A stretch of 64,000 nucleotides of DNA from a candidate division WWE3 bacterium (GTDB taxonomy: Bacteria > Patescibacteriota > WWE3 > UBA101185 > UBA10185): NCBI GenBank assembly GCA_052035175.1, contig JBPOHV010000001.1:366773-430772 (forward strand). Reading direction: 5' to 3'. The position numbers were made by a program, and so were the translations under genes. Positions within the stretch are counted from its first letter, which is position 1. Every line of letters starts with the position of its first letter. Below are positions 5,105 through 48,100 of this stretch, in pieces. Under the pieces are notes generated by a model. The model saw nothing but the letters and a program-made list of their open reading frames with translations. It was not told where the DNA came from and did no database searches.

Positions 5105-5114
5105 CATCTCTGTA

Positions 5115-5206
5115 GATATGTCTACCTGCGGTATAGCACTATGTGCTAACCTTGCTGGTATAGCACTATTTGCTTATCATACTGATATGTCTACCTGCGG
5201 TATAAT
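5115..5206 (+). promoter_or_regulatory. Promoter region of the ABC-F gene with the same GGTATAGCACTAT motif and direct repeats
   Basis: GATATGTCTACCTGCGGTATA duplicated (5115-5135 and 5183-5203). GGTATAGCACTAT duplicated (5130-5142 and 5157-5169). TATAAT at 5201-5206. Confidence 0.5.
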
Positions 5207-5212
5207 CAGCGC

Positions 5213-12024: not shown

Positions 12025-12700
12025 GGTTGAGTATGATGTATACTTAGGGCAAATTTCTCTTGATATGAGTTTTTACGACTTGGGTAAAAGATTAATAGAT
12101 ATTTTGGGTGGTATTGTAGGACTTATTATTTTTGCGCCGTTTATGGCCCTCATAGCTTTTTGGATTAAACTTGTTTCACCAGAAGGTCCAGTTTTCGCAG
12201 ATATACCTTATAGAGTTGGTAAAGATGGTAATTTATTTAGAATGTATAAATTTCGATCTATGATTCCTAATGCACAGAATTGGCTTAATGAACATCCAGA
12301 ATGGCTTGAAAAATATAAAGCAAATAGTTATAAGCTTGATCCTGATCCTCGACTTATAAAAGGTGCAAAATTTATACGCAAAAGTAGTGTCGACGAGCTG
12401 CCTCAGTTTTTAAATGTTTTATTAGGTAATATGAGTTTGGTTGGTCCACGTGCATATATGGATTTTGAATTACAGCAACAATTAGAGAAGTTTCCTGATG
12501 CAAAAGCAAATGTTGATCTTTTAATACGCGTAAAACCAGGTATTACAGGTCCTTGGCAGGTAGGTGGGAGATCGGAGATTAGTTTTGTAGAGAGAGTAAA
12601 AATTGATGCAGACTATGCACAGCGCCGCTCTTTGTTGTATGACATTATGATACTGCTAAAAACCCCATTTGCTGTTTTATCGCAAAAAGGGTCGTATTAG
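12014..12700 (+). CDS. Initiating phosphoglycosyl transferase (bacterial sugar transferase family, PglC/WbaP C-terminal domain type)
   Basis: One N-terminal TM helix followed by DELPQFLNVLLGNMSLVGPRA, the hallmark of the Bac_transf family. TTG start overlapping the upstream GT. Confidence 0.8.
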   Translation: MSNKVEYDVYLGQISLDMSFYDLGKRLIDILGGIVGLIIFAPFMALIAFWIKLVSPEGPVFADIPYRVGKDGNLFRMYKFRSMIPNAQNWLNEHPEWLEKYKANSYKLDPDPRLIKGAKFIRKSSVDELPQFLNVLLGNMSLVGPRAYMDFELQQQLEKFPDAKANVDLLIRVKPGITGPWQVGGRSEISFVERVKIDADYAQRRSLLYDIMILLKTPFAVLSQKGSY

Positions 12701-12734
12701 CCTTAAGGCGTATTTATGTAGTATATTAGATATT

Positions 12735-16807: not shown

Positions 16808-18190
16808 TTGTATACTCGTTTTATGTCGCCCGATAAGCAACAAAAGATAATATCCTTGGCCAAACGCAGAGGGTTTGTATTTCCTTCTAGTGAGATTTAT
16901 GGTGGGTTGGCGAATACTTATGATTTTGGGCCTTTGGGTTCACTTTTGACTAAAAATATTCAAGCTTCTTGGTGGAGGTTTTTTGTCACTAAAAGAAAAA
17001 ATATCCATGGTATGGATTCGAGCATTTTGATGAGTCCAAAAGTATGGGAGGCTTCTGGTCATACCGTACGTTTTAACGATGCGCTTATAGATTGTAAATC
17101 TTGTAAGTTAAGAACACGCGCAGACCATTTAATAGAAGATAATCTCCAAAACATCAAAGTCGAAGGCCAAAGCATGGAAGCTTTGGAAAAGATTATTTTT
17201 GACAACAAGCTCAAATGTCCAAATTGTGGAGAAATCAACTGGACAAAGCCTCGCAAATTCAATCTTTTATTCGAAACAAATATAGGTATTGTCGAAGATT
17301 CTCAATCTTTAGCTTATTTACGTGGTGAGATTGCTCAAGGCATGTTTGTTAACTTTAAAAATGTTCTCGACAGCATGAGACCAAGATTGCCGTTTGGGTT
17401 AGCTCAATCTGGTAAAGCTTTTAGAAATGAAATAACAAAAGGCAATTTTATTTTTAGAGTTTTAGAATTTTATTTGGCTGAGTTTGAATATTTTATAGAT
17501 CCAGAAAAGCAAAATTGGGAAGAAGTATTTGAATATTGGAAAAAAGAAATGCATGCTTGGGCATTAAGCTTGGGTCTTGATGAAAAGGCGTTATCTTGGA
17601 GAACCCACACAGATGATGAAAGATCGCATTATTCAACTCGGACCGAAGATTTGGAATACGAATTCCCTTTTGGACGAAAAGAGCTTTTTGGTTTGGCTTA
17701 TCGCACAGATTTTGATTTAAAGAATCATACAGAAAAATCAGGCGTCGATCTAAGATATACTGACCCAGATGATCCTACAAGAAAATTTATCCCATATGTT
17801 ATCGAACCAACTTTTGGTATCAACCGAGTAGTACTTGCTGTGCTTGCACAATCTTTTACTGAGGGTGATGACAGGATCTACTTAAAATTACCCAAGGATT
17901 TAGCTCCTTATAAAGTTGCGGTATTTCCTTTGGTAAGAAATAAAGAAGAATTAGTAAAAAAGGCAGATGAAGTTTATTCTGCTTTATTAGAGAAGGGGGT
18001 AAGCACTGCTTGGGATGATCGAGGAAATATTGGTAAGCGTTATTTCGCTCAAGATGAAATAGGTACTCCTTATTGCGTGACTGTCGATTATCAAACGTTG
18101 GAAGATGGGACTGTAACTATCAGAGACCGCGATACTATGAAGCAAGACAGAATTAAGATTGAAGAGATTAGTTCGATTGTTAGCAATTAA
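16808..18190 (+). CDS. glyQS: Glycyl-tRNA synthetase (alpha2 dimeric, GlyQS type)
   Basis: N-terminus KIISLAKRRGFVFPSSEIYGGLANTYDFGPLG, class II motifs, C-terminal anticodon-binding domain. Confidence 0.9.
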   Translation: MYTRFMSPDKQQKIISLAKRRGFVFPSSEIYGGLANTYDFGPLGSLLTKNIQASWWRFFVTKRKNIHGMDSSILMSPKVWEASGHTVRFNDALIDCKSCKLRTRADHLIEDNLQNIKVEGQSMEALEKIIFDNKLKCPNCGEINWTKPRKFNLLFETNIGIVEDSQSLAYLRGEIAQGMFVNFKNVLDSMRPRLPFGLAQSGKAFRNEITKGNFIFRVLEFYLAEFEYFIDPEKQNWEEVFEYWKKEMHAWALSLGLDEKALSWRTHTDDERSHYSTRTEDLEYEFPFGRKELFGLAYRTDFDLKNHTEKSGVDLRYTDPDDPTRKFIPYVIEPTFGINRVVLAVLAQSFTEGDDRIYLKLPKDLAPYKVAVFPLVRNKEELVKKADEVYSALLEKGVSTAWDDRGNIGKRYFAQDEIGTPYCVTVDYQTLEDGTVTIRDRDTMKQDRIKIEEISSIVSN

Positions 18191-19149
18191 GATTTTATGT
18201 CTCTTTTGAACTTTACAGTTGGTAGTTTTTGTTCCTTCTCTGGTTTAGCAAAATTTGGTTTTCGCAAATCACCCATCATTATGTCATCTGCTAACCCCTT
18301 CAGATCTAAAGAAAGAGCTTTGGCTTCTGCTTCTTCCTCAGATAGGCAGATATTTGCTGATGATAGAACTTTAAATTGCTTTTTACCCAATATGTCGTAC
18401 AACACTTTGAGCGCTTTTAAATCACCTGTAAGCATGCCTATTTGTAATTCTTTGAGTTGATCCATATATGAAACATTTCGAATAGCAGCGACTTTAGATA
18501 TTATCTTGTCTATTATGTAGCACTCGTGTTTATAACCTATTCCTGTAAGCACTTCTAAATCTGCTAGATTTTTGTATTTATGAGCATACTTTACTATCAT
18601 TGCGTGGTTGCTTATTTCTGTTAAAGCTTCGTTAAGAGCTTTAAAAGAACTTGTCGGCGTTTTATACCCAGCTCTTTCTTCTACAGGGTTGTATAGCGTT
18701 TGAGAAGGTGATCTATGTAATCCCACTTGTTTATACGCTGACTTGTGTACCATTTCATGATTAAGTCTAATTTTCTCTTTTGGTGTCAACTTGCTATGCA
18801 TTTTTTTAGCTAAAAATAATTGACCTTTATATGGGTTAATCCCAGCTGAGCATTGTCCACCTTCAACGTTATGTTTTTCAAAAGTTTTCATTGGCAAGAA
18901 ATGGGTTCGTGCAATCGTATCTTTGAGCCTGTTTGCAACTAGAGCTTCGAGTCCTAAATCAGCAGCCCATTCTAGTTGCATACTCACTAAATCTTTAATT
19001 ACTTCTATATCGTTTTCTTGTTTTTCTATTTCGCCATCAAAGCTTTCTTCGTAGTTAATTCTAACCTTAGTGCCTTCAGGTGTCCTTGGCGTGCCATACT
19101 CTCGTATTAGAAATCTAACATCTACTAGAGGTTCTTGTGTTTCAATCAT
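18187..19149 (-). CDS. hypothetical protein with HExxH motif (possible zinc metallopeptidase)
   Basis: 320 aa containing RLNHEMVHKSAY (HEMVH). No other recognisable domain. Confidence 0.45.
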   Translation of the reverse strand: MIETQEPLVDVRFLIREYGTPRTPEGTKVRINYEESFDGEIEKQENDIEVIKDLVSMQLEWAADLGLEALVANRLKDTIARTHFLPMKTFEKHNVEGGQCSAGINPYKGQLFLAKKMHSKLTPKEKIRLNHEMVHKSAYKQVGLHRSPSQTLYNPVEERAGYKTPTSSFKALNEALTEISNHAMIVKYAHKYKNLADLEVLTGIGYKHECYIIDKIISKVAAIRNVSYMDQLKELQIGMLTGDLKALKVLYDILGKKQFKVLSSANICLSEEEAEAKALSLDLKGLADDIMMGDLRKPNFAKPEKEQKLPTVKFKRDIKS

Positions 19150-19174
19150 TTCTTTTATTATACATAGATTTTTA

Positions 19175-19194
19175 GGGCTAAGCCCGGCTTAGCC
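19175..19194. repeat. GC-rich palindromic element GGGCTAAGCC-CGG-CTTAGCC
   Basis: Near-perfect 9-bp inverted repeat in AT-rich intergenic DNA. Member of a five-copy family. Confidence 0.7.
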
Positions 19195-19204
19195 TTTTTG
19201 TTTG

Positions 19205-19786
19205 TTAATGTTTTCGAGCTATAAAGTTATAAAAATGCCAGTGTTTATCTTCGCCACTAGCAGTTGATCCATCAAACTCACGTTCGGTTAGCTTTATTAT
19301 ATGCAGTGGCTCCAACAAACTTTCTGCTCTTTCGCGTGTAACAAATGTCAACTCTGTATCTTTTCTGTTCCACGAAGCATTTACACCAAAAAATTGACCC
19401 GTAAAAACACCCTGAGGTTTTAGTGCTAGTTGTATATTAGCTATCAACGCATCAAAGTTATCTGGTTTTTCAAATGGTAAAGACCATTGGGCTGTCACTA
19501 AATCGAATGTGTTTGGTGTGAATTCAAATTCGTCAAATTTTCTTTGAAATACAAGCAATCTTGCGTCTTGAATTTGTGTTTTATACTTTATAATTATTGG
19601 GTTTTTCTCGACTGCGCATACTAAATTGAAACCGCTATCTAGTAAATACTTAGAATCTCTTAGTGTTCCAGCGCCAAGATCCAAGGCAGTATCGCGTACT
19701 TTTACATAATTTACTGCTTCAACTAAAAGCTTGTTTGGTGGTTCTTGTTCTGTTTTTTCATAATATTCATTTGGTGTTATTGCCAT
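19205..19786 (-). CDS. Class I SAM-dependent methyltransferase (TehB-like small-molecule MTase)
   Basis: Motif I LDLGAGTLRDSKYLL, acidic post-I residue, 193 aa. Bracketed by GC-rich palindromic repeats. Confidence 0.7.
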   Translation of the reverse strand: MAITPNEYYEKTEQEPPNKLLVEAVNYVKVRDTALDLGAGTLRDSKYLLDSGFNLVCAVEKNPIIIKYKTQIQDARLLVFQRKFDEFEFTPNTFDLVTAQWSLPFEKPDNFDALIANIQLALKPQGVFTGQFFGVNASWNRKDTELTFVTRERAESLLEPLHIIKLTEREFDGSTASGEDKHWHFYNFIARKH

Positions 19787-19796
19787 GTTTTTTAAA

Positions 19797-19817
19797 AGGC
19801 TAAGCCGGGCCTAGCCC
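19797..19817. repeat. GC-rich palindromic element AGGCTAAGCC-GGG-CCTAGCCC
   Basis: Same family. Lies on the other side of the methyltransferase gene. Confidence 0.7.
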
Positions 19818-20122
19818 TTATACCGATACTTCTCGATATCAATATTAAAATCTTCATCTACGATTATACCTTCTTCAAGAAGTCTTTCTTTTTGGTCTAG
19901 TGCGTTATAGTGTGAACCTTTGATGCTTATGCGTCCGGAATTATTTATTATTCTCCACCAAGGTACTTCGGTTTTACCTTCTAGTTTGTTTAATATCCAC
20001 CCAACTTGGCGCGCAGCACGAGGTGAGTCTGCCAATAACGCAACTTGCCCATAGCTAGCGACTGTGCCAAAGGGAATTGAATTTACTATTTGAATTACTT
20101 TTTGTTTAAACGAAATCTGCAT
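19811..20122 (-). CDS. atl: Alkyltransferase-like protein (ATL; MGMT DNA-binding domain with Cys->Trp)
   Basis: 103 aa: SYGQVALLADSPRAARQVGWILN...VPWWRIINNSGRI. Corresponds to the PCHRV motif of O6-alkylguanine methyltransferases with Trp replacing the acceptor Cys, as in E. coli YbaZ/Atl (PWHRV). Confidence 0.75.
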   Translation of the reverse strand: MQISFKQKVIQIVNSIPFGTVASYGQVALLADSPRAARQVGWILNKLEGKTEVPWWRIINNSGRISIKGSHYNALDQKERLLEEGIIVDEDFNIDIEKYRYKG

Positions 20123-20184
20123 GATTAATTATATCCCACAACCGCAATACATTCGGGTTTTGTTTGTCTTGACTGTGGAACTCA

Positions 20185-25087: not shown

Positions 25088-25640
25088 ACTGTTTGAGCTG
25101 CCTATACGACAGCTTAGCAAGGTATTAACATACAGTTAGTCCGATAAGTTTACTTATCAGATTTTCCGAAACCTTGCCATTTCAAAATGACTTACCGCGT
25201 ACCTCGGATCTGTCCTTGATAGGGACAGTCCTTTGAATCATATGTACCTCTTTTAGTTAGTAAAGAAAATATTTTTCTGGTCTTAATATTGTTATTTACA
25301 CTAATTAACCTTAACGATTATTCGGAAGATCTGTTCTGTATTCTCATAAACTGTTATGTTGTTTTCTAGGCGGTATAAGAATTATTCATAAGCTTTATCG
25401 TCATCAACTTGTTTAGGTATTTAGCTTTTTTGTTAGTTTGCAGCTTGTTTTATCTGCATCTACATATGTACTTGTAAAACTATGGGCATAATGCCTATTT
25501 ATAAGAATTTCCATAGATATCACATATCGATTTAGATTTACAAAAGGTACAGATCTATAGAAGTACAGTACTTGGTGAGGACAGATCCCTTAGCAGAATC
25601 CCCTCTTGCATGGGGGAAAGCATTTGTGTACCATCTATGT

Positions 25641-31905: not shown

Positions 31906-32535
31906 TTAAGAATATCTTCTAACAACTCCAGTTACTTTACCTTGTACTTGTAAATTTTCAGCGTCTACATATATAGGTGCCATATTTTTGTTTGCGGGTT
32001 GCAACCTAATTTGACCATTTTTTTCTCTATAAAAAGTTTTGAGCGTAGCAAAGTTGTTATCGATCAAAGCTACTACTATATCGCCATCGTTGGCGGTTTC
32101 TTGTTGTTGTATAACAACATGATCTCCATCAAAGATACCCATATCAATCATGGAGTCACCTCTGACTTGTAACACATAACTTCTTCGATTTTTTGAAACC
32201 ATGTCGCTAGAGACCAAAACTGTTTCATATTGGTTTTCGTTTGCTTCAATAGGTTCTCCAGCTGCAATGAATCCCATTAGTGGAAGCTCTATCGAGTTAA
32301 GCGACGCGTTGTAAGACATGTCTGTAATTTCTATACCTCTTACAGCGCCATCATAGCGTTTGATAACGCCTTTCTTTTCTAAGGTTTGTAGGTGTTCGTG
32401 GACTGTAGCTAAGGAAGAAAGGCTCATAGCATCTGCGATTTCTCGAAGAGTAGGGGAGCTGTTGTTAACTTGTATATACTGAGAAATGTATTCTATTATT
32501 TGTTTTTGTTTTTTATATAAAGTTATAGGACTCAT
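31906..32535 (-). CDS. lexA: LexA repressor
   Basis: N-terminal wHTH (SPTLREIADAMSLSSLATVHEHLQTLEKKGVI) plus the S24 autopeptidase domain (Ser in VRGDSMIDMGIFDGD, Lys in ATLKTF). Confidence 0.9.
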   Translation of the reverse strand: MSPITLYKKQKQIIEYISQYIQVNNSSPTLREIADAMSLSSLATVHEHLQTLEKKGVIKRYDGAVRGIEITDMSYNASLNSIELPLMGFIAAGEPIEANENQYETVLVSSDMVSKNRRSYVLQVRGDSMIDMGIFDGDHVVIQQQETANDGDIVVALIDNNFATLKTFYREKNGQIRLQPANKNMAPIYVDAENLQVQGKVTGVVRRYS

Positions 32536-32547
32536 ATGTTATTAGAG

Positions 32548-32573
32548 TACCGAAAGTAACCCGAATATGTCAA
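32548..32573 (-). promoter_or_regulatory. lexA promoter with candidate SOS operator (ATATTCGGGTTAC-TTTCGG) between -35 TTGACA and the -10
   Basis: Minus-strand reading: TTGACATATTCGGGTTACTTTCGGTACTCTAAT...ATG. The TTCGGG core is shared with the uvrB and uvrA regions. Confidence 0.5.
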
Positions 32574-32588
32574 GGGGGAATTTTATAT

Positions 32589-32612
32589 AGGGCTAAGCCT
32601 GGTTAAACCCTA
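32589..32612. repeat. GC-rich palindromic element GGGCTAAGCC-TGG-TTAAACCC
   Basis: Same family as 19175 and 19797. Left boundary of the GC-rich cassette. Confidence 0.65.
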
Positions 32613-32687: not shown

Positions 32688-32707
32688 GGGATGCGGAGGC
32701 GTCAAGG
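32688..32707. repeat. Left arm of 20-bp inverted repeat flanking the small secreted-protein ORF
   Basis: GGGATGCGGAGGCGTCAAGG. Its partner is CAAGGATGCCTCCGCATCCCC at 33058-33078 (18 of 20 complementary). Confidence 0.65.
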
Positions 32708-32722: not shown

Positions 32723-33046
32723 ATGAAATTCATTAAGGGTGCAGTTTTTGCACTCTTTTTAATTCTCATAGCTGGGATGGCGGTGCAAGCCGCTGCCCAG
32801 CCTGCACGCGATAGCGTGCAAATCACACTCGCCAGCGGTGTCGCTGGTGAGATCACTGAAAAAACTGTGAGCTGCGGAAAAGTGCAGCTTACTTTTTTTT
32901 CAGACAATACACTTTTCGCCCCTGGAGTACGGGGCGAAAGAGGAAAGCTGATTTTCGAAGGGGGAATTGAACTTACGGTCACCGTCCAAAACTTGGACGG
33001 TGGTATAAAGTACACTGCGACCTCAGTCGGGTGTACTTTTAATTAA
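32723..33046 (+). CDS. Small secreted protein (signal peptide, two Cys), GC-rich cassette gene
   Basis: Strong RBS AAGGAGG 6 nt upstream of the ATG. Signal peptide MKFIKGAVFALFLILIAGMAVQAAAQ. The ORF is flanked by a 20-bp inverted repeat. Confidence 0.5.
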   Translation: MKFIKGAVFALFLILIAGMAVQAAAQPARDSVQITLASGVAGEITEKTVSCGKVQLTFFSDNTLFAPGVRGERGKLIFEGGIELTVTVQNLDGGIKYTATSVGCTFN

Positions 33047-33057
33047 GTTTCAAATCA

Positions 33058-33078
33058 CAAGGATGCCTCCGCATCCCC
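33058..33078. repeat. Right arm of the inverted repeat flanking the small secreted-protein ORF
   Basis: See 32688-32707. Confidence 0.65.
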
Positions 33079-33091
33079 CTTCGTACTAATA

Positions 33092-33111
33092 GGGTTTAAC
33101 CAGGTTTAACC
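33092..33111. repeat. GC-rich palindromic element GGGTTTAACC-AGG-TTTAACC (reverse orientation of 32589 copy)
   Basis: Near reverse-complement of 32591-32610. Confidence 0.6.
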
Positions 33112-33190
33112 TTTTAATCTTATTATCCAATTTATGCTAATCATTGCTACTAGCGTATGCTATTAGAAGTAAACATAGGTAGTTGTGCGA

Positions 33191-33213
33191 CAGGCTTAGC
33201 CTGGCCTAGCCCT
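33191..33213. repeat. GC-rich palindromic element AGGCTTAGCC-TGG-CCTAGCCC
   Basis: Same family. Right boundary, just upstream of uvrB. Confidence 0.65.
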
Positions 33214-33227
33214 TAGGTCATATGTTA

Positions 33228-33250
33228 GAATGTTCGGGATATGTTCGATA
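33228..33250 (+). promoter_or_regulatory. Candidate SOS operator at uvrB: GAATGTTCGGGATATGTTCGATA, overlapping -10 TAGAAT and the start codon
   Basis: TTCGGG core plus a second GTTCG half 11 bp downstream. TAGAAT at 33226-33231. Confidence 0.45.
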
Positions 33251-38542: not shown

Positions 38543-38778
38543 AGTTGTGTTAGTAAGCATTTTTCTACTCAGTTTTACTCAAGCCGATATAACCTATAGC
38601 TCGTATCATATCTTCATACAATTGAATAGAACTTTGACATCCAAATACTTTTCACTAGAACTCTAGAAGGAGGCTTTTTAGGCTTAACTGCGCTGTCGAG
38701 CTTATAAAGCCTTCTTTTATGAGAAGGTTCCCCAATGTGGGGAAATGCTAATAATCGCCGCAGTTGTGGCCAAGTCAA

Positions 38779-39076
38779 GGAGCTTGATATGTCTCGAATC
38801 AATGAACTTTTCACAAATCCAGTTGTAACCTTTTTGTGGTTTTTAATCCCGACCGGGGTACTCTGGTTCTTTGGGGTTGTGGCCCTTGGTATGGGTAGCA
38901 GTCTTGGAGATCTCTTGTTCGGAGCTGTCTTTGGCGGCGCCGTAACTGCATTCTTTTTTACAGTGTCTATGGAGGCGAAAAGTCGTGGGGAGCCCGGTTG
39001 GTTTTACACCTTCTTGATCTTTGGGCTCATTTCCATTGCAATTCCCATCACTGCTTTCATTAAAGCAGCTTATTAG
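38779..39076 (+). CDS. small 3-TM membrane protein (island gene 2)
   Basis: RBS AAGGAG 7 nt upstream of ATG 38779. Hydrophobic throughout. Preceded by the hairpin TTCCCCAATGTGGGGAA. Confidence 0.45.
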
Positions 39077-39085
39077 GCTGTACCT

Positions 39086-39148
39086 AGGTGGGCGAGGTGC
39101 TCATGGATAAAGATCTTAAGATCTCACACCATGGCACCTCGCTCACTA
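39086..39148 (+). repeat. Structured hairpin repeat, copy 1 (GGTGGGCGAGGTGC...GCACCTCGCTCAC)
   Basis: Imperfect stem of about 17 bp with a roughly 22-nt loop containing the GATCTTAAGATC palindrome. Homologous to 39999-40059, with compensatory substitutions between the copies. Confidence 0.7.
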
Positions 39149-39264
39149 AATCAATTACTAGAAAAAAGTTTGTACTAGATTTCAAAAAATGAAAGTTAGT
39201 ATGAGCTTTCTTCTGGAAAAATCTAGATGAAAGGTATTATGTTGCGTTGAGTAAGGAGTTAGTA

Positions 39265-39972
39265 ATGTCTCAGAAAATCTTGTCTTTTGGTCTCGCCCTG
39301 TTCGTGGCCTTTATGGCCGCTTGCAGCGGAGGTGGAGAACCGCAGTCTAGTGTAGTAGTAACTGCATATGATTGCAAAGGCGATGTCTTGGATCTCCAAA
39401 ATCGAGACCAGTTTATCCTAAACGGTCAAGAAGTTTTATTTGCGGATCAAGGATTCGCAAATTATCAATTTCTTGACACAGACTGGAACCAGCTCGCTGC
39501 TGGTCCAGATAAAGTTCCGTCAGATTCAATTCATTTAGATGATGAAAAAGTCTCGTTGGCCGGATCTGACTGGAAAATCACAAACATAGGTACCACTGTA
39601 GAGGGGAAAAGCAGAATATGCTTTGAGGAATGGAACGTGAATTACATTCCTCCAACAGTGACGCCAACGCCAACCCCGGTTGGGGAAATTGGTCTGGCGC
39701 TAACCCCAACTCCAGCTTATTCCTGTCCCCAAGGCGAATTCAACTATGTTGAAATCGAAGCTGGGAATCCCCATTACTCTTCTCTTGATGGTGATACCAC
39801 TGTGGTTATCGAAAAAAATACAAGTGGTTTTTCCATTGAGGTGGTCGGAGAGTTTTACGTCAGTGGAGACGTAAGTATTGGTTATGGAGAAGAAGCCATA
39901 ATTGGCGATTACCGATTCCACATCATTCGTGGTTATGAGGACGCATTATGTGTCCTTGTGACTCCTCCTTAA
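39265..39972 (+). CDS. Putative lipoprotein (island gene 3)
   Basis: RBS AAGGAGTTAGTA then ATG. Signal plus lipobox-like FVAFMAAC|SGG. Pro/Thr linker PPTVTPTPTPVGEIGLALTPTP. Confidence 0.5.
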   Translation: MSQKILSFGLALFVAFMAACSGGGEPQSSVVVTAYDCKGDVLDLQNRDQFILNGQEVLFADQGFANYQFLDTDWNQLAAGPDKVPSDSIHLDDEKVSLAGSDWKITNIGTTVEGKSRICFEEWNVNYIPPTVTPTPTPVGEIGLALTPTPAYSCPQGEFNYVEIEAGNPHYSSLDGDTTVVIEKNTSGFSIEVVGEFYVSGDVSIGYGEEAIIGDYRFHIIRGYEDALCVLVTPP

Positions 39973-39998
39973 CCTAAGGAGTAAAACTAAGGAAATCA

Positions 39999-40059
39999 AG
40001 GTGGGCGAGATGCTCGTGAAGAAGATCGCATGATCAGATATCACGGCATCCGCCCACTA
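39999..40059 (+). repeat. Structured hairpin repeat, copy 2 (GGTGGGCGAGATGC...GCATCCGCCCAC)
   Basis: Same architecture as 39086-39148. The GGTGC/GCACC to GATGC/GCATC and CATGG/CCATG to CGTG/CACG changes keep the pairing intact. Confidence 0.7.
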
Positions 40060-40153
40060 AACCAAGAAGAAAGTTTCTATCAGCCTTTGGATCTCTGAAA
40101 GCAAAGATTGGTAGAAGCCTTCTGCTAAGAAGGTAAACCACAAGGAGGCAGTA

Positions 40154-40603
40154 ATGTTTTTTGTAGCGATATTGCGTAAGTTTTGGTGGATCTTGCCTGT
40201 GGCAATGGTGATTATGTTAATCGCTATGGCTATGGGAGTAGGAGATCCCGCTCCGGTTTTACCAGAGACAGAAACACCCGCCAATGAAGTTAGTGCATTA
40301 TGTACTGATTTCTTCGGCTGGTCCGTTGTGGATAGTACTGACTTTGTCAGCGCTGAATATGTGAATGGCGACATTTACGTAGAGTGGACCAATAGTGGTC
40401 CGAATCCACGCATTATGGGGGTGAACTTTTATGGCTGGATCGTCAAAGATCCACAGCCTGGTGTACATCTGGAAATTCCTCAGGGTATTCTGCTCCTCAG
40501 TGACGATGGACAAATATTGTCCATCTTACCTACAGGGCAGGATCCAGTGGTGATTGAAATAGGCACAACCTGCCTGCAAAAGCCACTGCCTACCAGAGGA
40601 TAA
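40154..40603 (+). CDS. small exported protein (island gene 4)
   Basis: RBS AAGGAGG 5 nt upstream of the ATG. N-terminal TM/signal WWILPVAMVIMLIAMAMG. 149 aa. Confidence 0.45.
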   Translation: MFFVAILRKFWWILPVAMVIMLIAMAMGVGDPAPVLPETETPANEVSALCTDFFGWSVVDSTDFVSAEYVNGDIYVEWTNSGPNPRIMGVNFYGWIVKDPQPGVHLEIPQGILLLSDDGQILSILPTGQDPVVIEIGTTCLQKPLPTRG

Positions 40604-40606
40604 ATT

Positions 40607-40671
40607 GAGCGGTAGATCGCTGTAGATAGTCCAAATCAGGACGCAATCTCTACGCGATCTACCGCTTTTTC
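40607..40671 (+). terminator. Rho-independent terminator with large structured loop
   Basis: GAGCGGTAGATCGC...GCGATCTACCGC followed by TTTTTC. Perfect 13-bp stem. Confidence 0.65.
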
Positions 40672-40786
40672 AGTTTTATACTAATGACTCATCAAATGAT
40701 ACTAGTTCTGCTTAACTCAGTTTCACTCATGCCCTCATACCTCATAGTGCTAGTATGCCGCTATTAATCTGATTAAAGGAGATGCC

Positions 40787-40990
40787 ATGTTAGTACTAAC
40801 TAAGAATACCGAACTTACCTTGTTTGGTATAAAAATTACGTTTGTAAATAACAGTTTGGATTTTTCAGCTGCATCCGAACTGGATGTTTTGTATGTCCCA
40901 GATTCCAATCCAAGAATTGTAAATGTTTGTTATCGGAATCGATCAATTTTTGTTGTGCAGCTACACGACATGCTTATTATTTCATGGTAG
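40787..40990 (+). CDS. small hypothetical protein (island gene 5, 67 aa)
   Basis: RBS AAAGGAG 5 nt upstream of the ATG. No TM helix. Confidence 0.3.
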   Translation: MLVLTKNTELTLFGIKITFVNNSLDFSAASELDVLYVPDSNPRIVNVCYRNRSIFVVQLHDMLIISW

Positions 40991-41048
40991 TTACCTTCAA
41001 TACCCAACAGTTTGGCATAAAGACCAAACTACAAATAAGGAGAATCTG

Positions 41049-41303
41049 ATGAAACGCTTTATGAAAAACCCGTTGATAACCTGGCTCGTACTTCTTGTTT
41101 TACTAACACCATTTTGGTGGTTAGCAAATGGAGGGGGCCGTGAGATAGATCTACCGCTAGCTCTGTCGGGGGTTAATGCATACATATTAATGTATGCATT
41201 GATTACTCGTGAAAAGGGTGACGCGCTCTTTTTGTCATTAGTCTATGCCGTTGCAGGACTTGTGATGCTAGGGTTTTCTTGTTATCTGATTATTATAGGG
41301 TAG
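41049..41303 (+). CDS. small 2-3 TM membrane protein (island gene 6)
   Basis: RBS AAGGAG 6 nt upstream of ATG 41049. Begins MKRFMKNPLITWLVLLVLLTPFWW. Confidence 0.4.
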   Translation: MKRFMKNPLITWLVLLVLLTPFWWLANGGGREIDLPLALSGVNAYILMYALITREKGDALFLSLVYAVAGLVMLGFSCYLIIIG

Positions 41304-41310
41304 AAAGAAA

Positions 41311-41373
41311 AAGGCGGTAGGTTTGCTGAGTACATTAATCAATGATTGATGCGCTCGCGATCTACCGCTTTTT
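41311..41373. terminator. Bidirectional rho-independent terminator sharing its 3' arm with the 40607-40671 terminator
   Basis: GAAAAAGGCGGTAG...GCGATCTACCGC followed by TTTTTC. Sits between convergent genes. The 18-nt 3' arm is identical to the 40654-40671 arm. Confidence 0.6.
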
Positions 41374-41379
41374 CTTTTC

Positions 41380-42783
41380 TTATTTATAGTAATCGTTTAA
41401 TTGACTATATGGCACTATCTTCATATCTGGGTTTTGTGTTAGCAAGTCTTTTTGTAACTGCAGATCTAACGTATCATCTCTGAATATCACAGCTTTTATA
41501 TCTTTACTAGAAACATGCATATTTCTTGGTTGTTTCGTATAACCTTTACTTGGATGCAACACGCCTTCTACGTATACACCATTGCCCTTCATTGCGCCTG
41601 CTTCAGGCGTTCCTGGTAAATATGTATAGCTCATGTGTTTTTCTATTTCAAATACTTCTCGGAATGCATGTACCATTCTTGCATCAACAAGTGAAAGCAT
41701 TTTGATTAAAGTTCCATCTGCAAATTCATGTCGTCCTATTGGTTCTCCTCGATCACCATATGTATATTCAACTCTTAAGGCTAGTGCTTCGTTGAAATGA
41801 ACAAAGATAGGTCTTTTTTTGCCCCATTCGTAGCGCTCGCCAGTTTTTTTTGAAATAAGTGCCCCGTACAATACAGAGTAAGGTTCGTTATTAACGGTTG
41901 CTTCTAATTGGGCTGGTGCGGTTGCATTCGAAAAAATAATAGTGTCGTATATTTCTAGTATCTGTTGTTCTAGTTCGTCTACTTGCATTGTGTCTATTAA
42001 TTCCGCTGCTTGAGAGTCCACTATCTCAATAGGTGAATCGCCAAGAGTGTGTTTTAATAATTCAATTGCTTCCCTCTGTTCGTTGGAATCAGCAATATTG
42101 TTGTATATTGTTTCTACCGCTTTTTCTATTTCGAGTTTTATTTTGTTTTGTATTTTTTCGCGTGTTAAAAACTTGCCAACTTTTTCAATAACTGCTATAG
42201 CCGCATTTTCACTTGTTTGCTTATTAATAGCAGTAGTTATGTTTTTTTCTGTAAATAGTGGTTCTTCTTGTATATTCTCAACTAGATGTATAAACTGAAT
42301 AACGGTTTGATTAGGCGCAGAAAAGTTTTCTAAGAAAAGTTCGTTTTTAGCCTCATCACAATCAACATCAGCGATGTTTACGCCTTTAACCTGTATTTGT
42401 ACACCACTCTCAGACTTAACCAGGCTATATTCATCTGGTAATCTTTTTTTTAATATTTCGATATCAGTATTTAATTTGGCAAATAGTATGGAGTGATCGC
42501 TTGCATTTGTTTTAAAAGAAATAGACATGAGTTCATTATCAGGAGTTTCCATTCTTATACTAGGTCCTGCTCCTAGTGTATCGATATATACTTTACACGC
42601 TTTAACCAAAGTGTCTGCGTGTGCAGTTTCATCTTCTATTACTTGTGTAAAATTCGCATACCTAGCAATTTTTTTGGTGTATGTTTCTAATAGTTCCAAC
42701 TTTAAATTTTCTTGGCTTGTTTGAACCTCATCAGCAGTGTTTTCAATATGAACTTCTTTTTCACTGGTTATATCATCAAGCAT
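41380..42783 (-). CDS. hypothetical protein (467 aa, acidic N-terminal half)
   Basis: Long ORF with no recognisable catalytic motif. Co-directional with the upstream 94-aa gene and separated from it by 8 bp. Confidence 0.5.
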   Translation of the reverse strand: MLDDITSEKEVHIENTADEVQTSQENLKLELLETYTKKIARYANFTQVIEDETAHADTLVKACKVYIDTLGAGPSIRMETPDNELMSISFKTNASDHSILFAKLNTDIEILKKRLPDEYSLVKSESGVQIQVKGVNIADVDCDEAKNELFLENFSAPNQTVIQFIHLVENIQEEPLFTEKNITTAINKQTSENAAIAVIEKVGKFLTREKIQNKIKLEIEKAVETIYNNIADSNEQREAIELLKHTLGDSPIEIVDSQAAELIDTMQVDELEQQILEIYDTIIFSNATAPAQLEATVNNEPYSVLYGALISKKTGERYEWGKKRPIFVHFNEALALRVEYTYGDRGEPIGRHEFADGTLIKMLSLVDARMVHAFREVFEIEKHMSYTYLPGTPEAGAMKGNGVYVEGVLHPSKGYTKQPRNMHVSSKDIKAVIFRDDTLDLQLQKDLLTQNPDMKIVPYSQLNDYYK

Positions 42784-46284: not shown

Positions 46285-48100
46285 ATAGCGTATTTGATTC
46301 ATTGTCGATGATTTTTGGTATTTTTTGTTGAGTGATTATAAAAGGAATTTCTAGTGGTGTATCATTTGCATCTTTAAATTCGATTTTTGTGGTATCTCGA
46401 TCGAAATACACTTTAATCTTTCTATTTGGTTTCAAAATCGAGACTGTGCTGTTTGCAGTTTGTATATTGTATAAAAATGTACCGCCTTCATTTGTGAGTA
46501 TGTATGCTTTACGACCTTTAAATATCTGATACAAATTCAAGTTTGGTGTGTTGTATATTTTCAGTTTATTATCAAACTTATCTTCTATATTATTTTGTGC
46601 AAATTCGACTTCTACTAGCTTTTTGGCGATAGGTGCATCTTTTTCTGGTGAGTTTATATTAGTATTTCTGTACCCACCAGCAGGAATAGGCCATTGAGAA
46701 TCAATACCTTTTGTTACAAAAGCAAAATGATTTGTATCTAGTTTTGTAAAATAGTCTATCCCAGCGGTTTTTCCCCACGTAGGATCAACAGAAACCCACC
46801 CGTAAGTTGGATCGTAAAACTCGGGCCACGCGTGTAACAAATCGATTCCAGAAAGGTTAATTGATAAAGGTTTATTTTCTATGTCTGTTGTAAATGCATA
46901 TCCGTTTAATTCTCGAGAAGGTATACCCATAGCTCTAGTTATTGCTATAAAGGCGTCGGTAAATTCCATGCATACATTTGGTGAATCTTGTGTAAGCGCA
47001 GTTTTTGCTCCATGGCGTTCTACAGTTTCTCTCGAATTTATTTCAAAGTCATAATCTAGCGTATGTACAACATAGTCATAAGCTTTTTTTGCATTTTGTG
47101 CAACCGACACATTTTCGTCTTTAAGTTGCGCAGCTATTTCTTGAATTTGTTGTGAATCACTTTCCCAAAAGGGTTGGGCGTTTGTATATTTTTTTACTAA
47201 TTCATCAGGTAAATCCGCAAAATTTTTGCTAGCATTCAAATCTATTTGCTTGCTAAATAGCCTAGCAGATCCAAGTGCTTTTACTTCTATAGCTTGGCTC
47301 GGCTTTAGAATATAACGAGCGATATAATTGTTATCTTCGTCAAAATATACAAAGTAAGGTTCTGGAGTAATAGACGCATAGCTTACTTGCTGTACATTTT
47401 TTTTGTCAAAAGGTAGAGCAATCTCAAATGTTTGAGGTATTTTAGCCTGATTTTGTAATTCGTATGTAAGGTTGAAATTTAAATCTTGATGTAAACCAAA
47501 TGCGGCCGTGATGCCTGTATTTTGCACTTTTTCTTTTGAAAATGTATATATGTATACATTACCGTCATCTTTAGTCGTATCAGGAATTGGTGAAATAAAA
47601 ATGTTTGGGCCTATTTCTTTTGGTACAGCGATTGTTATATTGTACCTGCTGGCAGCGGTAGTTATCTCGGCTTTTGGTATATTTATATTCCAAATATTCC
47701 CAACTTTTTTTGCAATGTCTTTAGTTTTATACGTTACCGTAAATCTATTTTGTTTACCTTCGCCAATTATTTGTTTGTTGAGTTGCGCGCTTATGCTTGT
47801 GTTGTCGTCTGTTTTTTCTACATTTGTTTTCATTTGACCTTCCAAGTCGTGGCCGTAGACATCATACACGCTCAATTTTTTTATCAGTAGTGAGTAACTC
47901 GTTGCGACAACATCTTTTTGTAAATTTGTGAGTGTGACGGTTTGATCTACTTGTGTTTCACCGATCGATGTTATGTTATAAGTGAGATCGTATTCTACAA
48001 TAAACTGATTATCTGCTTTTACAACCAAAGCTATAAGGCTTATCATCAAAGCTGTGGGGAGTAAGGCGAATTGCAATAATTTTATAAGTCTTCCAAACAC
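46145..48100 (-). CDS. Large exported transglutaminase-like (Cys-His-Asp) superfamily protein with N- and C-terminal TM anchors
   Basis: CMEFTDAFIAITRAMGIPSRELNGYAF and LLHAWPEFYDPTYGWVSVDPTWG match the transglutaminase core. The 3' end overlaps the uvrA 3' end convergently by 140 bp. Confidence 0.7.
   Translation of the reverse strand: MFGRLIKLLQFALLPTALMISLIALVVKADNQFIVEYDLTYNITSIGETQVDQTVTLTNLQKDVVATSYSLLIKKLSVYDVYGHDLEGQMKTNVEKTDDNTSISAQLNKQIIGEGKQNRFTVTYKTKDIAKKVGNIWNINIPKAEITTAASRYNITIAVPKEIGPNIFISPIPDTTKDDGNVYIYTFSKEKVQNTGITAAFGLHQDLNFNLTYELQNQAKIPQTFEIALPFDKKNVQQVSYASITPEPYFVYFDEDNNYIARYILKPSQAIEVKALGSARLFSKQIDLNASKNFADLPDELVKKYTNAQPFWESDSQQIQEIAAQLKDENVSVAQNAKKAYDYVVHTLDYDFEINSRETVERHGAKTALTQDSPNVCMEFTDAFIAITRAMGIPSRELNGYAFTTDIENKPLSINLSGIDLLHAWPEFYDPTYGWVSVDPTWGKTAGIDYFTKLDTNHFAFVTKGIDSQWPIPAGGYRNTNINSPEKDAPIAKKLVEVEFAQNNIEDKFDNKLKIYNTPNLNLYQIFKGRKAYILTNEGGTFLYNIQTANSTVSILKPNRKIKVYFDRDTTKIEFKDANDTPLEIPFIITQQKIPKIIDNESNTLFIASKVFVVFLVGLLLYVSIYNLAMLLSHLKKLVHHLYLRLRDRDR

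Follow-up and report, generated by a model that had tools for sequence, protein, structure and literature searches.

What are the short GC-rich palindromes that bracket a single methyltransferase gene in the chromosome of a candidate division WWE3 bacterium? In a 64-kb stretch of this chromosome (the window), the initial annotation had noticed two of them around the gene, GGGCTAAGCCCGGCTTAGCC at 19175-19194, 10 nt from its stop codon, and AGGCTAAGCCGGGCCTAGCCC at 19797-19817, 10 nt from its start, and had reported that the family recurs at 32.6-33.2 kb. These observations hold, and three copies are located at and inside the second segment. The initial annotation had also proposed that the palindromes are boundary elements of inserted cassettes. 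This proposal is supported in that the insertion at the second locus ends near two of the palindromes, the gene block between glyS and mraZ at the first locus is lineage-specific, and the half-sites of the elements are modular. We estimate a probability of about 0.5 that the five palindromes are the junction (end) sites of small mobile gene modules in the intergenic spacers of one lineage.

To describe the family, motifs were counted over the whole window. It contains five copies of a 25-bp two-fold symmetric element, (TAG/AAA)GGYYWARCC-N-GGYYWARCC(CTA/TTT). By chance, 0.02 copies of the 25-nt pattern WARGGYYWARCCNGGYYWARCCYTW would be expected, and 0.13 copies of the dimer GGYYWARCC-N-GGYYWARCC, which was found at positions 19176, 19798, 32591, 33093 and 33193. 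The 9-mer GGCTWAGCC occurs five times against 0.27 expected, and single 9-mers beyond the five sites are at the chance level. All five elements are confined to two loci and lie in intergenic DNA; the window has about 30 spacers of at least 15 nt, and only those of the two insertion loci carry an element. The GC content of the elements is about 65-70% compared to 36% for the window. Each 9-mer half is itself palindromic around a central A or T (GGCT.AGCC, GGTT.AACC), so the element can be described equally well as two palindromic units in tandem or as a 20-bp hairpin.

E1 (19173-19197, TAG-GGCTAAGCC-C-GGCTTAGCC-TTT) lies between the methyltransferase stop codon and the start of a gene for a 320-aa protein, and is a perfect palindrome; a TATAAT hexamer is found 13 nt downstream of it on the minus strand. 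E2 (19795-19819, AAA-GGCTAAGCC-G-GGCCTAGCC-CTT) has one mismatch and separates the atl gene from the methyltransferase start; its right unit contains the codon at which atl stops (TAG, 19811-19813, minus strand). E3 (32588-32612, TAG-GGCTAAGCC-T-GGTTAAACC-CTA) forms the left boundary of an insertion of about 620 bp in the lexA-uvrB spacer. E4 (33090-33114, TAG-GGTTTAACC-A-GGTTTAACC-TTT) is an internal junction 3' of a small open reading frame (ORF), and E5 (33190-33214, ACA-GGCTTAGCC-T-GGCCTAGCC-CTT) is the right boundary of the insertion, 14 nt upstream of the extended -10 element of uvrB (TGTTAGAAT).

A comparison with the orthologous loci of relatives, which the initial annotation had suggested, showed that the elements sit at the ends of lineage-specific DNA. 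Using a LexA-based search, we collected the loci of 80 relatives (453 kb in all, with 50-76% identity). The divergent arrangement of lexA and uvrB is conserved among them, with spacers of variable length: many relatives have 68-140 bp, one group has about 450 bp, others have 1.3-1.5 kb, and the window has 705 bp. Where the spacer is short, the sequence on the lexA side runs from the start codon as TACCGAA..ACCCGAA..TGTCAAG, and the uvrB -10 hexamer and ATG follow 10-33 nt further. The homology of the window to the relatives stops at TGTCAAG (32574) and restarts at CATATGTTAGAAT (33219), where relative L120 has CATATGTTATAAT. Since the homology breaks off and resumes at these two positions, the ends of the insertion map to E3 and E5: the additional DNA starts at most 15 nt from E3 and ends at most 6 nt from E5. 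Not even one copy of the element was found in the lexA loci of the 80 relatives. Their own lexA-uvrB inserts are other small genes without palindromic boundaries.

At the first locus, relatives keep the gene order RecO-GlyRS-[gap]-MraZ-RsmH-FtsL-FtsI-LytR. The closest of them (L104, L192 and L193) have nothing in the gap, and L103 and L194 have one or two small, unrelated ORFs there. The gap of the window is filled by a minus-strand block consisting of atl, the methyltransferase gene and the 320-aa ORFan, with E1 and E2 in the two internal spacers. Because the gap of the relatives is empty or holds unrelated ORFs, the block with E1 and E2 is lineage-specific.

The arrangement of the elements became clear when the ten 12-nt halves (two per element) were read from the flank to the centre. 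The outer-left halves of E1 and E3 are the same (E1L = E3L, TAGGGCTAAGCC), as are the outer-right halves of E2 and E5 (E2R = E5R, AAGGGCTAGGCC); both are common to the two loci in the same polarity, and the identity extends over 12-13 nt. The halves facing the methyltransferase gene are identical over 13 nt (E1R = E2L, AAAGGCTAAGCC), and the halves facing the small ORF are also identical over 13 nt (E3R = E4L, TAGGGTTTAACC). The centre bases on the two sides of a coding cargo complement each other (C/G for the methyltransferase, T/A for the small ORF), therefore each coding cargo has perfect 14-nt inverted ends. Beyond the 25-nt sites, the two units show no sequence similarity. When the ten halves were shuffled in a post hoc test, at least two matched inner pairs together with both outer pairs appeared in 0.06% of trials (P about 6e-4). 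The cargo genes themselves are rare or orphan and one is a GC outlier, which we count in favour of junction sites.

Because the outer halves are common and the inner halves match for each coding cargo, we read the pattern as an exchange at the centre of the palindrome. E3 is a clean hybrid of one GGCT-type and one GGTT-type unit (GGCTAAGCC / GGTTAAACC), and therefore any exchange would fall within CC-N-GG. We infer that the half-sites are bound, as double-stranded DNA, by a recombinase whose strand exchange takes place there. The site would then consist of two 12-bp half-sites around a central base, with the halves acting as exchangeable units. Both loci could be written as outer-left/x, cargo, x'/outer-right, and the second locus would be a two-module array of the form OL/y, ORF, y'/z, 75 nt, z2/OR (OL and OR, outer-left and outer-right). 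A circle or another replicon carrying the palindromic x'/x would recombine at the centre of a resident outer-left/outer-right site. This reciprocal exchange might integrate a circle, or it might proceed in two steps with another replicon. Such conservative site-specific recombination would be functionally like that of Xer/pdif modules or integron cassettes. In this model, the two ends of the methyltransferase module would be joined in a circle through AAAAGGCTAAGCC-N-GGCTTAGCCTTTT, and those of the ORF module through ATAGGGTTTAACC-N-GGTTAAACCCTAT.

Several points speak against junction sites. The evidence comes from two loci and five sites, and the shuffle test was devised after the pattern had been seen. 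The halves E4R and E5L, which surround a non-coding piece of about 75 nt, do not match. The Pfam scan covered 24 of the 56 ORFs of the window, mainly those without an obvious function, and no recombinase, integrase or transposase was found among these 24; the other 32 ORFs include GlyRS, MraZ, RsmH, FtsI, UvrB and IleRS, which were named from their translations. At its centre, the site has just one variable base, in CC-N-GG, compared to the asymmetric 6-8-bp spacers of known tyrosine-recombinase sites. As described below, the family was seen in no other genome, metagenome, virus or plasmid, and thus there is no independent replication. Finally, the model presupposes that both loci had a resident site (TAGGGCTAAGCC-N-GGCCTAGCCCTT) before the insertion. 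None was found in the relatives or in the window, and the 64-kb window has no solo copies of the element.

On this last point a transposon is favoured, since it needs no prior target site and fits the site-free relatives. The palindromes could be the terminal inverted repeats of a non-autonomous cut-and-paste transposon, similar to a miniature inverted-repeat transposable element (MITE) with cargo. In that case the whole unit from TAGGGCTAAGCC to GGCCTAGCCCTTA would move, possibly with a TA duplication in the style of IS630/Tc1-mariner or Stowaway. Terminal inverted repeats are present: E1 shares 23 of 25 positions with the reverse-complemented E2, and E3 and E5 agree at 10 of their outer 12 nt. 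The two loci have identical outer 12-13 nt in the same polarity, the unit lengths are close (644 and 624 bp), and TA stands beside both units provided that GCCCT is read as the right end. The likeness to MITE, Correia-type and Stowaway-type elements also includes an intergenic position and the lack of their own transposase. However, MITE copies share a common interior, while the interiors of the two units are unrelated, carry ORFs and include an internal third site. Neither this site (E4) nor the inner halves, which match within a module and differ between modules, would be explained by a transposon. The duplication is ambiguous (TTA/TTA at the first locus, ATA/TTA at the second), falls inside the shared end sequence and lies in AT-rich DNA, and no transposase was among the proteins scanned. 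We consider a transposon unlikely.

The possibility that the elements act in the transcript as intrinsic (bidirectional) terminators or insulators of the inserted genes, which the initial annotation had raised, was assessed by RNA folding. E1 folds with -13.8 kcal/mol on the plus strand and -12.1 kcal/mol on the minus strand, and its plus strand was among the top matches of a terminator scan. E2 forms a strong hairpin (-14.4 kcal/mol) on the minus strand only, which is followed by UUUU just after atl. E4 forms a weak hairpin (-5.1/-3.2 kcal/mol), with UUUUAAUCUUAUU directly after it, 3' of the small ORF. E3 and E5 are poor hairpins, and the folds of E3, E4 and E5 are no better than those of dinucleotide-shuffled sequence (z about 0). 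It turned out that the U-tracts are absent or lie on a strand without a gene end; this is so for E1, where the neighbouring genes are on the minus strand. The geometry of a terminator, with a stem and a U-tract at the 3' end of a gene, was found only for E2 on the minus strand and, weakly, for E4 on the plus strand, while E3 and E5 stand upstream of genes. Since good hairpins are found in only two elements, the five are not a terminator family. The central bases of the units (A/T) are complementary in just two of the five elements, and the inter-unit stem of E3 has two mismatches, yet each of its units keeps its own symmetry. The folding, the mismatches and the placement of the U-tracts mean that the family conserves sequence half-sites and not a transcript hairpin. 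Moreover, ordinary terminators with long stems and T-runs are present elsewhere in the genome, and identical halves of 12-13 nt point to common descent rather than convergence. Thus, a role as terminators is highly improbable.

Another suggestion of the initial annotation was that the palindromes are related to repetitive extragenic palindromic (REP) sequences or bacterial interspersed mosaic elements (BIMEs). In that case they would be independent, selfish REP-like or GC-cluster-like palindromes, and their adjacency to accessory genes would be coincidental or would reflect permissive spacers. Like REP and BIME sequences, which are sometimes paired, the elements are short, GC-rich, extragenic and, as a family, imperfectly palindromic in an AT-rich genome, and E3 has TA on both sides. 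They differ from REP and BIME sequences in the lack of dispersal (five copies at two loci in 64 kb), in the absence of the GTAG signature and in their tight link to lineage-specific inserts. The Pfam scan of the 24 window proteins gave no hit similar to the REP-associated tyrosine transposase (RAYT, TnpA_REP), and no GTAG flanks the elements. Solo copies in the window are missing, as are copies at the loci of the relatives, and an ordered sharing of half-sites would not be expected of independent palindromes. This explanation is improbable, and the annotation's suggestion is not supported.

We also asked whether the elements could be operators. Both loci adjoin putative SOS boxes. The direct repeat TTCGGG-N5-TTYG occurs exactly three times in the window (0.05 expected): upstream of lexA (32551-32565, minus strand), where it is not part of the palindromes, overlapping the uvrB start (33233-33247, plus strand) and in the divergent atl/mraZ spacer (20152-20166, plus strand). 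It is kept at lexA in the relatives and upstream of mraZ in L104. As far as it is described in PMC7739468, which cites Sanchez-Osuna et al. (2017), the direct-repeat LexA motif of Patescibacteria fits this box. The box is probably the LexA box of Patescibacteria. A related motif, aaacccgaacatataccg, was observed upstream of uvrA at about 43150. The palindromes are not LexA operators, because the direct-repeat box is a separate motif of the same promoters. They could still be the operators of another dimeric DNA-binding regulator, with two 9-bp palindromes one helical turn apart. The spacing of 10 bp and the symmetry kept inside each unit, including the double change from GGCT.AGCC to GGTT.AACC, agree with this idea, and E1 and E5 overlap the -35 position of TATAAT and TAGAAT promoters. 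However, the positions of the elements relative to the genes are inconsistent (after stop codons, over a stop codon, 60 nt upstream of a -35 element), and the elements are absent from the orthologous promoters of the 80 relatives. Identical flanks past the units and a modular layout would not be expected of operators either. Of the explanations weighed here, we give this one the least credit.

If the elements are junction sites, the question arises whether they belong to a known system. In Acinetobacter, pdif modules carry a single gene or no ORF and have 28-bp XerC/XerD sites at their ends, in which like arms point inward and the crossover is centred (PMC13141974). The two loci resemble them in having small discrete modules, often with one gene and sometimes with no ORF, and short sites of the recombination type (about 25-28 bp). 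In both systems like half-sites face the module, arrayed neighbours can share a site, and the crossover is, or for the elements of the window would be, at the site centre. In the window, like half-sites face the module over 13 nt in E1R = E2L and E3R = E4L but not in the third module. The geometry of the site is different: one central base in CC-N-GG is found here, and the 28-bp sites consist of an XerC arm of 11 bp, a 6-bp spacer and an XerD arm of 11 bp. There are also no two clearly distinct alternating arm types (C and D) in the elements of the window, and the setting is a chromosome of the candidate phyla radiation (CPR) and not an Acinetobacter Rep_3 plasmid. The sequence of the elements is unlike the dif consensus. 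No Xer gene was seen in the window among the ORFs scanned.

The likeness to integrons consists in single genes, promoterless or self-contained, that are bracketed by imperfect palindromes and arrayed head to tail at a single locus. GGTT-type units fit the core consensus GTTRRRY/RYYYAAC (GTTAAAC/GTTTAAC), but GGCT-type units are one base off. Integron integrases are regulated by LexA, and both element loci are under putative SOS control. However, attC sites are 57-141 nt long and work as folded single strands with extrahelical bases, while the elements are 25 nt long and E1 is a perfect palindrome. The attC crossover is at one end of the site (G/TT of GTTRRRY), and the sharing of half-sites among the elements puts any exchange at the centre. 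In contrast to integrons, cargo is found here in either orientation. The window showed no intI, attI or Pc, and the scanned proteins included no Pfam integrase or recombinase. The elements therefore do not belong to the attC family, proposed in the initial annotation: their length, their fold and the position of the crossover do not fit, and intI is missing from the window. They would work like site-flanked gene modules and are members of neither the pdif nor the attC family.

We then assessed whether the family is found beyond this genome. In 185,579 species genomes other than the source genome (596 Gb), the 19-mer pattern GGCTWAGCCNGGCYWAGCC gave 99 scattered hits, compared to an estimate of about 100-140 expected by chance. 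Most of these hits come from high-GC genomes and are parts of longer hairpins or of 10-bp tandem arrays; none are clustered. The 25-mer WARGGCTWAGCCNGGYYWARCCYTW gave no hits in the JGI metagenomes, and the only viral contigs with both unit types were five unrelated singletons. Whole modules compared with plasmids and phages by blastn in distant mode found no match, and the literature search returned nothing on the palindrome motif or on cassette systems in CPR bacteria. Thus, to judge from these searches, the family appears to be private to this lineage. One IMG/VR viral contig, L190 (37% GC), carries GGTTTAACC three times at 12660-12710, including the dimer GGTTTAACC-A-GGTTAAACC beside TTGAC. 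These copies resemble operator sites of a phage repressor and are probably unrelated to the elements.

The window itself, with a GC content of 35.9%, belongs to a low-GC bacterial chromosome of WWE3-like Patescibacteria. It encodes GlyRS, MraZ, RsmH, FtsL, FtsI, LexA, UvrB, UvrA, UvrC, RNR and IleRS, and the nearest GlyRS homologues are 70-73% identical and labelled candidate division WWE3, Pacebacteria or Patescibacteria. A phage origin was rejected, since the genes are chromosomal core genes and a megablast search of phages with the 17-22 kb region found no match.

The cargo of the second locus begins with a 107-aa ORF (32723-33046, plus strand), which has an N-terminal hydrophobic signal-like segment and encodes a small, putatively secreted protein. 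It has its own promoter-like sequence, TTGTAC-N18-TATAAT, and an AAGGAGG Shine-Dalgarno sequence. The ORF is a near-ORFan, and its GC content (47.8%) is an outlier compared to 36.5 +/- 3.7%. An inverted repeat of 16 nt, GGGATGCGGAGGCGTC at 32688-32703 and GATGCCTCCGCATCCC at 33062-33077, encloses exactly this ORF; its arms are 94% complementary, and each is a small hairpin itself. The repeat could be a nested element or a pairing of the 5' and 3' untranslated regions at the mRNA ends. Between E4 and E5 lies a non-coding, AT-rich piece of about 75 nt (33115-33189), an "empty" module. We also observed two direct repeats. AAGGGGGAATT occurs at 32572-32582, just left of E3, and again at 32958-32968 within the small ORF, and TCATATGTTA occurs at 32532-32541, at the lexA start, and again at 33218-33227, just right of E5. 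These repeats may be due to chance or microhomology.

The cargo of the first locus (19205-19786, minus strand) encodes a 193-aa class I S-adenosylmethionine (SAM)-dependent, TehB-like methyltransferase with hits to Methyltransf_25/11 and TehB. The gene has no promoter or Shine-Dalgarno sequence of its own, and its ATG is 10-11 nt from E2. The protein is rare (21 homologues among 5.8 billion proteins, the best with 46% identity), and the composition of the gene is host-like. The idea that this methyltransferase travels with the palindromes was rejected, as its homologues are found in unrelated contexts without such flanks. The first gene of the lineage-specific block, divergent from mraZ, is atl-like (19811-20122, minus strand) and encodes the DNA-binding domain of MGMT. 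Since PWWR replaces the catalytic PCHR, the product is predicted to be an alkyltransferase-like protein (Atl) and not an active methyltransferase. The last gene of the block (18187-19149, minus strand) encodes the 320-aa ORFan with an HEMVH motif (HExxH, metalloprotease-like). This protein has no family matches, and its structure model is unusable (predicted local distance difference test, pLDDT, of 34). We dropped it as a candidate mobility gene of the block because it is an ORFan with an HExxH motif and no family hits. It shares an operon with the Atl-like DNA-damage protein. Removal of the E1-E2 unit plus one TA would fuse atl and the 320-aa ORF in frame; this could be chance, the probability of which is about 20%.

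The lexA-uvrB spacers (L107-L186) and the glyS-mraZ gaps (L103, L104, L192-L194) are insertion hotspots across the clade. Between lexA and uvrB, a small membrane ORF with a terminator hairpin is found in L108-L117 and L124, an ORF similar to SAM methyltransferases in L134, and inserts of 1.3-1.5 kb in L147, L153 and L154. Another variable island with repeat families of its own may lie between uvrB and uvrA. At 38700-41400 there are three GC-outlier genes (38735-39076, 39247-39972 and 40154-40603; 45-46% GC), which are parted by long spacers with repeated hairpin modules, namely AGGTGGGCGAG(G/A)TGCTC at 39086 and 39999 and CGCGATCTACCGCTTTTTC at 40653 and 41356. Elsewhere in the window, the 108-nt spacer 5105-5212 contains two copies each of gatatgtctacctgcggtata and ggtatagcactat, has no Rfam match and could be a repeat-rich regulatory region or a candidate small RNA. 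Two regions, 46285-47507 (1.2 kb) and 25088-25571 (0.48 kb), lack both an Rfam family and any ORF of 70 aa or more, an unusual feature in so compact a genome. Rfam gave zero RNA families for the window as a whole.

What would the palindromes mean for these bacteria? If the direct repeat is the LexA box, the dcw operon leader (mraZ) and atl would be under SOS control. Both element loci are thus at putative SOS promoters and are also general insertion hotspots in the clade, which hints that the DNA-damage response is linked to the acquisition or expression of genes. It is possible, though doubtful, that a CPR/Patescibacteria lineage has a previously undescribed chromosomal gene-module system. 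In it, a recombinase acting on two-fold symmetric sites of about 25 bp would insert, array and perhaps swap single-gene modules beside SOS-controlled promoters. Such a system would be an analogue of pdif modules and integron cassettes, with sites unrelated to theirs in sequence and geometry. If the palindromes are private, inactive repeats of one metagenome-assembled genome, the finding is a curiosity. If they are junction sites, an odd palindrome with exchangeable 12-bp halves would be a kind of site not described for Xer, integron or transposon systems, and it would provide a simple sequence signature for recently acquired genes. CPR/Patescibacteria have tiny, streamlined genomes, and their gain of accessory genes is poorly understood. 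Thus, if the palindromes are recombination junctions, they would represent a minimal cassette system for that radiation.

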